Assembly: GCF_003334405.1 (NCBI RefSeq)
Contig: NZ_QOWM01000021.1
Origin: Escherichia coli
GTDB taxonomy: Bacteria > Pseudomonadota > Gammaproteobacteria > Enterobacterales > Enterobacteriaceae
Strand: one strand, 5' to 3'
Length of the DNA: 53,345 nt
A program made the translations under genes and the position numbers. How positions within the stretch are numbered: the first letter of the stretch is position 1; every line of letters begins with the position of its first letter. Shown one piece after another: positions 23,573 through 26,516 of this stretch. The notes under the pieces were generated by a model, which made no database searches, was not told where the DNA came from, and saw nothing but the letters and a program-made list of their open reading frames with translations.

Positions 23573-23639
23573 AATAAGTCCATTTTTTAAACGTAGGGAG
23601 GCCGCCACCCACCAGGATGGAAATAGCGGCTATTGACAT

Positions 23640-25043
23640 TTATAACGTTACGGAAGCCGTTTTTTCTTCTGTCGCCATCTCTTTATTTTTGCGTTGGTTG
23701 ATTTCCTCAATAATCAATGCAAACCGTTTTTCATTGAGTGTGTAAAAGAATCCCATCGTCAATGCAGCAATAATTGCCAGTGCACAAGGCCAGATAAAAA
23801 TGAGCTGACGCAAACCCTGTAATGTCGCATCGCTTTGCGCGATGTTGGGAACATAACCAATTTGCGTCAGCATAATGCCTGGCAAGAAGCCAGCAAGTGC
23901 GGCAGAAATTTTACGAAAGAAGGTATAACCGGTATAAACAGAACCTTCGGCACGAATACCGGTTTTCCATTCACCGTAATCTACGGTATCTGGTACCAGT
24001 GCCCAGTTCAGGCTGTTTACAAAGGCCGTGCCAAAAAAGGCGACACAAGAGAACATGACGAAAGTGAAAGAGTTACTTCCCCAGAAATAATTCAGTATAT
24101 CACCCACCGCCCACAGCACCATGCCAGCCAGATAAACCTGTTTTTTACCAAAACATTTTACAGTTAATGGCACCAGTAATACGCCGATGAGGATGCATCC
24201 CATACTGAAGAATCCCATCCACGACAATAAATTAATATCATTCAGCACATACTGGGTGTAATAGACCTGAATCGCCAGTTTGATATTAAATGCCGCCAGG
24301 GTACACAAGTTAGCAATGCATAAAACCAGCAATGGCGGATTCCGAAATATCGCGCAAAATGATTTGAGAATACTGGCTTTATGTCCGGTTGGCGTTGTGT
24401 CCACATAATGCTCTTTGACGCCTCTGTAGCACAGCATCATAAAAATAAAGCCGCCAATGGAGAACATAAGTGCCGCACAGGCATAACCGACGGTTGAGTC
24501 AGAAAAAAGCGACTGCAACGGAATAAACGCCACGGTACAAATCAATAGCCCTATGGTTGCACCACCCTGGCGGTAAGCCGCGAGCTGCGCGCGCTCATTC
24601 GGGTTTTTGGTAATTGCCGGGATCATCGCACCATACGAGCAGTTCATCAGACTGTATGAAAGTCCAAACATCATAAACAGCGCGGTGGCAATCGTCGTTT
24701 TAACCGGCAAACAAAAGGTGGTGGCGATAAACTGGAGCGTTGCAATTAACGCCGCCGGAACCGCTGCATATAAAATAAAGGGACGAAATTTGCCTTTAGG
24801 CCCAATATTTTTCCGCGAGTCGAGTAAAAATCCGGTGAGCATATCGGTAAACGCGGTAAAAAACTTCGCCACCAGAAAGATAATCCCGCCATAGTAAGCA
24901 GGCATCCCTAATTCATCGGTATAAAATTTGAGGAGATACAGAGTACCGATGCAGAGCATTAAATTCGAACCGACGTCGCCCATACCATAGGCGATTTTTT
25001 CCCGCAGATTCAGTTTTAATGTCAGTGGATTATGGTCAGACAT
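23640..25043 (-). CDS. yihO: GPH-family transporter YihO (putative sulfoquinovose / sulfoquinovosyl-glycerol importer)
   Basis: Hydrophobic ORF with GDVGSNLMLCIGTLYLLKFYTDELG; start taken at MSDHNPL (25043), track start is 25049; paralogous to the adjacent yihP. Confidence 0.85.
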   Translation of the reverse strand: MSDHNPLTLKLNLREKIAYGMGDVGSNLMLCIGTLYLLKFYTDELGMPAYYGGIIFLVAKFFTAFTDMLTGFLLDSRKNIGPKGKFRPFILYAAVPAALIATLQFIATTFCLPVKTTIATALFMMFGLSYSLMNCSYGAMIPAITKNPNERAQLAAYRQGGATIGLLICTVAFIPLQSLFSDSTVGYACAALMFSIGGFIFMMLCYRGVKEHYVDTTPTGHKASILKSFCAIFRNPPLLVLCIANLCTLAAFNIKLAIQVYYTQYVLNDINLLSWMGFFSMGCILIGVLLVPLTVKCFGKKQVYLAGMVLWAVGDILNYFWGSNSFTFVMFSCVAFFGTAFVNSLNWALVPDTVDYGEWKTGIRAEGSVYTGYTFFRKISAALAGFLPGIMLTQIGYVPNIAQSDATLQGLRQLIFIWPCALAIIAALTMGFFYTLNEKRFALIIEEINQRKNKEMATEEKTASVTL

Positions 25044-25085
25044 AATCACTCCTTATAACGCCCCGCAGGGCGTCGTTTATTATTA

Positions 25086-26471
25086 TTACGCCGTGCGTTT
25101 ACGGGCTTCTATCTCTTCCACAATGCGGACATACATCTTCTCGTTCAGGCTGTAGAAGCAACCCATCGCCACAATGGTGACTACCGCCAGTGCGCTTGGG
25201 TAGATGAAGATCAACTGGCGTAACCCTTCAATGGTGTGGTCAGCCTGTGCGACGTTCGGCACATAGCCAATTTGCGTCAGCATCCAGCCGGGGAAGAAAC
25301 CAGCCAGCGCCTGAGACACTTTGCGAAAGAAGGTAAAACCGGTGTAGACCGTTCCTTCCGAACGCACGCCGGTGCGCCACTCGCCGTACTCGACGGTGTC
25401 GGAAACCAGCGCCCAGTTCAGGCTGTTAACAAACGCTGAGCCAAAGAACGCCAGGCAGGAGAACGCCACGAAGCTGACCGAACCGCCGCCGAAGAAATAG
25501 TTGAGCAGATCGCCCAGCACCCAAATCAGCAGGCCGCCGATATAAACTTTCTTCTTGCCAAAACGTCTGACTGAGGCAGGCATCAGGAATACGCCGATGA
25601 AAATACAGCCCATGCTGAAAAATCCCATATACGACAACAGGATGGGATCGTTAAGCACGTACTGGGTGTAATAGACCTGGATGGCGAGCTTGACGTTAAA
25701 CGCCCCTAAAGTGCAGAGGTTGGCAATGCACAGAATGAACAGCGGGCGGTTACCCGCAATTGCGCGGAAAGATTGCAGCAGGCCCGGCTTTTGCGCCGGA
25801 TTAGCAGGCTGGGTTTCGACATAACGCTCTTTCACGCCCGAGTAGCAGATCCACATAAACAGCAGGCCAAACAGTGAAAACAGCGTGGCGGCGAAGATAT
25901 AGCCAAGTTGCTGATTACCTTCGATAAGATTCATAACTGGCACGAATCCCACCGTGCACAGCAGCAGGCCCAGCGTAGCGCCGCCCTGACGCCATGCCGC
26001 CAGTGAGGCGCGTTCGTTGGGGTTTTTGGTGATAGCGGGAACCATTGCGCCGTAGGAGCAGTTCATCATGCTGAAAAACAGTCCGTAAAGCATAAACAGA
26101 ATAGTGGCCATCACCGTTTTACCGGTGACATCAAACGGTGTGCCGACAAAGTTGGCGATCGCCAGTAAGGTGACCGGGAATGACGCATACAGAATAAAAG
26201 GACGGAACTTACCTTTTGGACCGATCTTGCGTCGGGAATCCAACATAATGCCGGTACCCATATCGGTAAACGCAGTAAAGAATTTTGAAATCAAAAAGAT
26301 AATGCCGCCATAGGTGCCTGGCAGCCCCAGAACGTCGGTATAAAACTTCAAAAGATAAAGCGTACCGATATCCAGCAGGATGTTAGAGGCCAGGTCGCCA
26401 ATACCGTAAGAGAGTTTCTCTTTAAAGGGCAGGCGTAAAGTTGCTGGATCTTCCGTTGTGATGTGACTCAT
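25086..26471 (-). CDS. yihP: GPH-family transporter YihP
   Basis: ORF-track frame trimmed to ATG 26471 (MSHITTEDPATLRLPFKEKLSYG...), which has SD GGAGA upstream; GDLASNILLDIGTLYLLKFYTDVLG paralogous to YihO. Confidence 0.85.
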   Translation of the reverse strand: MSHITTEDPATLRLPFKEKLSYGIGDLASNILLDIGTLYLLKFYTDVLGLPGTYGGIIFLISKFFTAFTDMGTGIMLDSRRKIGPKGKFRPFILYASFPVTLLAIANFVGTPFDVTGKTVMATILFMLYGLFFSMMNCSYGAMVPAITKNPNERASLAAWRQGGATLGLLLCTVGFVPVMNLIEGNQQLGYIFAATLFSLFGLLFMWICYSGVKERYVETQPANPAQKPGLLQSFRAIAGNRPLFILCIANLCTLGAFNVKLAIQVYYTQYVLNDPILLSYMGFFSMGCIFIGVFLMPASVRRFGKKKVYIGGLLIWVLGDLLNYFFGGGSVSFVAFSCLAFFGSAFVNSLNWALVSDTVEYGEWRTGVRSEGTVYTGFTFFRKVSQALAGFFPGWMLTQIGYVPNVAQADHTIEGLRQLIFIYPSALAVVTIVAMGCFYSLNEKMYVRIVEEIEARKRTA

Positions 26472-26516
26472 CGATGTTCTCCCTTTGCCCATGAGTTTCC
26501 CCACGGGCGGATGTGA

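Follow-up and report, generated by a model that had tools for sequence, protein, structure and literature searches.

Consecutive protective hairpins give rise to graded transcript abundance in menBCE, with malE-malF and papBA serving as models (PMC5927463). The closest described systems to the element reported here are the protective 3' stem-loops of the mal/men type, namely the REP hairpin of malE-malF and, behind menB and menC, a run of consecutive hairpins (Dar and Sorek 2018, PMC5927463), and the 5' stem-loop of the papBA type, which results from RNase E cleavage (Bricker and Belasco 1999, cited in PMC5927463). Here, we describe a stem-loop, H1, in the spacer between the yihP and yihO genes of Escherichia coli. 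The window analyzed is a stretch of 53,345 nt that holds the yih (sulfoquinovose) region, with the genes in the minus-strand order yihU-T-S-R-Q-P-O-ompL.

H1 resembles the mal/men type in being a sense-strand stem-loop at a cistron boundary that is conserved among enterobacteria, is one of several in its operon, and accompanies an abundance that steps down along the transcript, features which in the case of yih are known from sequence and read counts. It differs in that it is not a REP element, being present as a single copy in the window and having no Rfam match, and in that it is intergenic and adjoins the next Shine-Dalgarno (SD) sequence, whereas most structures in PMC5927463 are found some 100 nt into the ORF that follows. 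With the papBA type it shares the placement of a hairpin between an AU-rich single-stranded stretch and a downstream RBS; in contrast to that type, the AU-rich linker of yih is not conserved beyond close relatives, and yihO is not more abundant than yihP. While this kind of element is well known, H1 itself appears not to have been described before: the papers searched that mention yihO and yihP contain no description of the hairpin, of processing at the junction, or of 3' ends.

Organization of the yihP-yihO junction

The junction comprises the following features.

25077..25088, minus strand: end of yihP, with the stop codon TAA (25088..25086) and three further in-frame TAA forming (TAA)4, as given by the sequence, the ORF end, and RefSeq
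25075..25085, minus strand: AU-rich linker UAAUAAUAAAC from the stop codon to the hairpin, unpaired in the predicted folds
25057..25074, minus strand: hairpin H1, with 5' arm GACGCCC (25074..25068), loop UGCG (25067..25064), and 3' arm GGGCGUU (25063..25057)
25049..25054, minus strand: yihO Shine-Dalgarno sequence AAGGAG, ending 5 nt before the ATG
25041..25043, minus strand: yihO start codon ATG, from the RefSeq annotation of the identical sequence, with N terminus MSDHNPL

By the RefSeq start of yihO (ATG at 25043), the spacer is 42 nt long, and the 36 bp given for it in the initial annotation correspond instead to a GTG at 25049 taken from a mechanical ORF call. The N terminus of YihO is conserved across species as MSDH(N/D)PLTLKL, and GAGGA or AAGGA is kept at the yihO SD position in all species compared. 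AAGGAG begins 2 nt past the 7-bp stem of H1, or 3 nt past the 6-bp stem originally proposed. The linker sequence between the yihP stop and the stem is not kept between genera. At the end of yihP, both the repeat number and the sequence of the (TAA)4 differ among E. coli strains, in the form of 3-nt and 2-nt indels and TAATTATAA variants.

The two transporters, encoded within 23640..26504 of the window, share about 65% identity by tblastn. A scan that took a single genome for each species with YihO yielded 72 loci, 61 of which carry yihP and yihO in tandem and provided the spacers used below. A few genomes (L051, L053, and L076) have a single copy instead of the pair.

Folding and stability of H1

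The 16-mer ACGCCCTGCGGGGCGT (minus strand, 25073..25058) folds as RNA into a 6-bp stem closed by a UGCG loop (-11.7 kcal/mol; z = -3.7), a stability matched by 0 of 200 shuffles, and addition of the pair G25074.U25057 extends the stem to 7 bp with five G-C pairs and -13.4 kcal/mol. The presence of a GC hairpin on the minus strand just before the yihO SD, as recognized in the initial annotation, is thereby confirmed at 25074..25057. The 42-nt spacer folded alone gives a z of -3.2, again with 0 of 200 shuffles as stable, and in a 125-nt context the core pair of H1 forms with a probability of 0.885. The window holds 22 spacers of 15 nt or more between genes on the same strand; in stability, the hairpins of the yihQ-yihP and yihP-yihO spacers come fourth and fifth among them, and above them stand only one 852-nt gap and apparent real terminators.

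No repeat family was found for H1 within the 53 kb, and by its copy number in the window it is not a REP/BIME element. The stem pattern CGCYYNNNNRRGCG has four matches in the 53 kb versus 1.4 expected by chance, with a palindrome at H1 only, and the yihP-yihO junction occurs once per genome. Rfam returned no match up to E = 10 for positions 24500..25600.

Conservation and covariation

The junction is present in 3881 of 5426 complete E. coli genomes. Its absence from the other 1545 fits the published short yih cassette; separately, E. coli XJ5.2 (L006, NZ_CP074354.1) carries an IS1 directly after a truncated yihP-like MFS gene, with yihO-ompL-yihN missing. In six E. coli lineages, H1 is invariant despite a divergence of as much as 6% in the 250 nt around it, apart from G25074>A, a change that converts the G.U pair into A-U.

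A hairpin lies at the same position in 41 of the 61 tandem Enterobacterales species, with spacers of 36 to 51 nt and with stem sequences that vary among loci (ACGCCC, GCGCUC, GGUGCCC, GCGCCG, GGCGCC, and others). Another 9 loci have spacers of 69 to 239 nt with different, larger structures, and in the remaining 11 the hairpin is missing and the spacer measures 9 to 25 nt. This clean loss indicates that whatever role the hairpin has is dispensable. What resembles a precise excision of the palindrome, with flanks and SD intact, is seen in Rahnella (L045 versus L044), Pantoea (L054 versus L049), and Atlantibacter (L018/L022/L071), amounting to at least three independent losses. In Rahnella victoriana and Pantoea stewartii the deletion is precise when a sister species is taken for comparison. 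In Atlantibacter hermannii, the yihQ-yihP hairpin is kept and the yihP-yihO hairpin lost.

We assessed covariation in an unguided MAFFT alignment of 37 spacers, each from a different species. An 8-pair helix is paired in 94.3% of cells, compared with 40 to 53% when the partner is slid, and 5 of the 8 pairs show compensatory changes on both sides. The observed covariation score is attained by 0 of 500 shuffles, and RNAalifold predicts the same helix. The three central pairs (the CGC/GCG core) are constant in the 37 species save for one U.G, while the flanking pairs covary. H1 is a real mRNA stem-loop that is maintained by compensatory mutation in dozens of enterobacterial species, and purifying selection clearly acts on it in the sense transcript.

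The sense strand folds

That H1 is an RNA structure of the yih mRNA follows from the G.U bias of the stems, the stability of the sense fold, and the tetraloops. The sense stems contain 19 G.U pairs, for which the opposite strand would give A.C mismatches, and the sense fold is stabler than the antisense fold in 28 of the 31 distinct hairpins. UNCG loops account for 19 of these 31 hairpins and GNRA loops for 2, and the complements of such loops are not special; the sequences seen are UGCG, UUCG, UACG, GUGA, GCAA, and AUAA, as well as 5-nt loops. Both UNCG and GNRA are RNA tetraloops of extra stability, of the kind that typically caps terminators and protective hairpins.

It is most improbable, given this asymmetry, that the element is instead a DNA-level palindrome, an antisense terminator on the plus strand, or a neutral relic. 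In E. coli, CGTTTATTATTATTA comes after the hairpin on the plus strand, and a terminator scan lists H1 as terminator-like on that strand; however, the call stems from the AAU-repeat linker, which is not conserved, and the T-rich antisense tail is confined to the group with such linkers. The antisense terminator was dropped on account of both the strand asymmetry and the unconserved tail. In addition, the stem sequences change across species, which argues against a sequence-specific DNA operator, and the covariation of the stem excludes a neutral relic.

Related hairpins along the operon

Two further spacers at the transporter end of the operon contain hairpins.

26487..26508, minus strand: yihQ-yihP hairpin, GCCCGUGGG-GAAA-CUCAUGGGC; 9 bp, -16.9 kcal/mol
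23601..23630, minus strand: yihO-ompL composite hairpin, GCCG..CCAUCC-UGGU-GGGUGG-CGGC; predicted fold

The yihQ-yihP hairpin lies 15 nt before the yihP ATG (26471) and has the same stop-hairpin-SD layout as H1. Over 29 species, 98% of its cells are paired and 6 of its 9 pairs are compensatory, values that 0 of 500 shuffles reach. It occurs in almost every species, with mainly GNRA loops and with GCCCG/CGGGC kept, and the linker UGAUAAGGCUC ahead of it is likewise conserved. The yihO-ompL hairpin is located about 30 nt from the ompL start, and by inspection of the folds the Citrobacter and Enterobacter groups have a hairpin with other stem sequences in the equivalent position, the stem of the latter group being CCCUUCCUG..CAGGAGGG.

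The near-invariant center of H1 within covarying flanks, together with the kept GCCCG/CGGGC of the yihQ-yihP hairpin, could be taken to mark a binding site for a structure-recognizing RNA-binding protein such as ProQ, or for an operon-specific factor that would read the CGC/GCG core. ProQ binds stable hairpins and protects them against exonucleases. We nonetheless judge such a site very unlikely, since selection for stability alone would also be expected to produce an invariant GC core in a stem this short, and the loop sequences vary, as listed above.

Transcription past H1

The initial annotation suggested that the hairpin could attenuate read-through from yihP. H1 does share a GC-rich stem and a UNCG/GNRA tetraloop with intrinsic terminators, but no U-tract follows the stem: the E. 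coli tail reads UAUAAGGA, all 37 distinct enterobacterial junctions have only 0 to 3 U in the 8 nt past the stem, and a terminator scan of the sense (minus) strand does not list H1. In K-12 grown on sulfoquinovose, yihO received 149 and 169 raw reads and yihP 204 and 212 (PMC12608037 supplement). From that supplement we compute 0.113 reads per nt for yihO and 0.150 for yihP, a ratio of 0.75 at low raw counts in one published data set, and a marked drop of the transcript past H1 is not seen in these data. An intrinsic terminator is rejected on the basis of the missing U-tract and this ratio, and the proposed attenuation of read-through is poorly supported on both counts.

A milder version of the same idea is that H1 acts as a weak transcription attenuator or RNA polymerase pause hairpin, at which some polymerases would stop or pause after yihP and thereby lower yihO-ompL transcription. 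It would account for the yihO read density being 25% below that of yihP and for the terminator-like tetraloop on a GC-rich hairpin, and it has a counterpart in an Anaerobiospirillum MAG (L074:2399-2473), where the orthologous junction has a 14-bp hairpin with U8 behind it, which makes a canonical terminator such as no enterobacterial junction shows. We consider it unlikely, however, in view of the U content and the sense-strand scan given above, and because the genes yihU to yshA are treated as one operon in Salmonella (PMC3913822) and all genes from yihU to ompL, with yihO and ompL among them, are induced together on sulfoquinovose (PMC12608037). An internal promoter that would make H1 a primary 5' end was also discarded, as no promoter-like minus-strand site is present near 25090-25200.

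Structures at the yihO start

The second mechanism suggested at the outset was sequestration of the RBS. Like RBS-masking hairpins (translational operators and thermometers), H1 lies within 3 nt of the SD, and its neighbor H2 pairs the AUG. Unlike in such hairpins, the SD (25054..25049) and the AUG (25043) lie wholly outside the H1 stem (25074..25057), which speaks against sequestration by H1. Direct pairing of an arm with the SD was dropped, since by inspection only 3 bases are complementary, and inspection likewise revealed no alternative pairing of either H1 arm with the SD. Hence, the general idea that a functional hairpin may make the expression of the two paralogs differ still stands, the structure being under selection, while both specific mechanisms put forward for it fare poorly.

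25024..25050, minus strand: hairpin H2, located where translation of yihO initiates; AGUGAUUAUG-UCUGAC-CAUAAUcCACU, with a free energy of -6.6 kcal/mol and a pair probability of 0.88

In H2, which is weaker than H1, codons 4 to 7 (His-Asn/Asp-Pro-Leu) form pairs with the AUG and with the final 2 nt of the SD. In 17 species, 94.7% of its cells are paired and two pairs show compensatory change, of which one is clear (E. coli GUG/CAC versus Citrobacter GCG/CGC); the covariation support is modest, as the region is mostly coding and varies little. In the Enterobacter group, an SD-proximal GGAUCG pairs instead with the UGAUCC of the Asp-Pro codons of yihO.

The yihP-yihO spacers of Yersinia, Hafnia, Mixta, and Serratia are 87 to 141 nt long and hold a two-stem element (L050:2355-2485, L070:2355-2485, L056:2398-2494, L048:2393-2485, and L061:2342-2488). 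Its conserved 5' internal loop GGCAGG complements CCUGUC between the yihO SD and AUG, with GACAGA and UCUGUC as the counterparts in Serratia microhaemolytica, and judging from this complementarity the element may mask the yihO start region. An Rfam scan of the long spacers of other genera gave nothing relevant. One could go further and regard the stop-hairpin-SD modules and the start-region structures (H2 and the GGCAGG element) as a dedicated post-transcriptional control that sets or switches the transporter ratio, which might act via an RNA-binding protein specific to it, via processing at defined sites that would yield separate mRNAs for the transporters, or via a fold responsive to a ligand or condition; we hold this to be quite unlikely.

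A proposed nuclease-resistant boundary or insulator of translation

Read densities computed from the PMC12608037 supplement are 0.34 reads per nt for yihQ, 0.15 for yihP, 0.11 for yihO, and 0.03 for ompL, such that the density steps down at all three hairpin junctions and ompL lies 4-fold under yihO. The stop-to-stem distance, counted from the first base of the stop codon, is 6 to 21 nt (median, 14), and where it is short, the outermost stem pairs are A-U; in every species the GC core begins 11 nt or more past that first base. At this distance, and given the known ribosome footprint, a ribosome terminating on yihP should not melt H1.

Our preferred reading, which we put forward tentatively, is that H1 is one of several nuclease-resistant hairpins that punctuate the operon and set the stability of its segments, and that it flanks the yihO RBS. 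We infer this role from the extra-stable tetraloops, the invariant GC core, a position that the terminating ribosome should not reach, the recurrence of hairpins along the operon, and the read densities that fall step by step, all of which fit a nuclease barrier. H1 would fold in the polycistronic yihUTSRQPO-ompL mRNA as one of three spacer hairpins at the transporter end and would halt exonucleases that move 3' to 5' from an endonucleolytic cut made farther down the transcript, so that the upstream yihP-containing segment would outlive yihO-ompL. As H1 adjoins the yihO SD, no naked RNA would be left between the hairpin and the ribosome-covered start. Since it abuts the SD, H1 could in addition act as a cap-like hairpin at the 5' end of yihO once the upstream linker is cleaved, although an AU-rich linker suited to RNase E is not kept outside the Escherichia-Citrobacter-Salmonella group. 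The net result would be a fixed, stepwise tuning of mRNA amounts along the operon. Against the barrier reading, yihO falls only slightly below yihP (25%, at about 150 to 210 raw reads per gene), a difference that could reflect ordinary polarity.

The main rival concerns translation. In nearly all species the stem lies 10 to 14 nt from the AUG, and the stem-to-SD distance is 0 to 4 nt; so tight a stem-to-AUG distance is needless for a pure exonuclease barrier and points to a link with translation initiation. H1 may thus be a translational insulator or standby element that locks the G/C-rich spacer and presents the SD in a short single-stranded linker between H1 and H2. Initiation at yihO could then be independent of yihP translation and of upstream sequence, and re-initiation after yihP termination could be blocked. 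Engineered insulators such as RiboJ place a hairpin just upstream of the SD. H1 resembles the 3' hairpin of RiboJ in being short, stable, and placed immediately 5' of an SD, whose accessibility is predicted to rise slightly; it differs in being natural and in having no ribozyme.

Insulation explains the tight hairpin-SD spacing better than the barrier reading does, the stop-to-stem distance being looser, and the yihQ-yihP hairpin repeats the layout, with a distance to the yihP ATG that stays at 15 nt. The short spacers of the hairpin-less species (9 to 25 nt) are compatible with coupling instead. Opening the region from SD to AUG is computed to cost 6.5 kcal/mol with the hairpin versus 7.3 in its absence. 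The hairpin lowers this cost in 32 of 42 sequences, although the P value overstates the effect because the sequences are related. Yet the predicted effect on accessibility is small (0.8 kcal/mol), the extra-stable tetraloops and invariant GC core exceed what insulation would need, and the yihO-ompL hairpin, some 30 nt from the ompL start, does not stand at the SD. We therefore regard insulation as possible but rather doubtful, and continue to favor the nuclease-resistant boundary.

Implications for the transporter pair

The YihO/YihP tandem of sulfoquinovose transporters occurs across the Enterobacterales. The conserved RNA structures between yihP and yihO and before yihP indicate that their relative expression is set after transcription. 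This matters when the pathway is engineered or measured, or when one of the two genes is deleted on the assumption that the other is left untouched. The yih operon provides a clean, covariation-backed example of intra-operon hairpin punctuation, and may serve as a test case for distinguishing an exonuclease barrier from RBS insulation.
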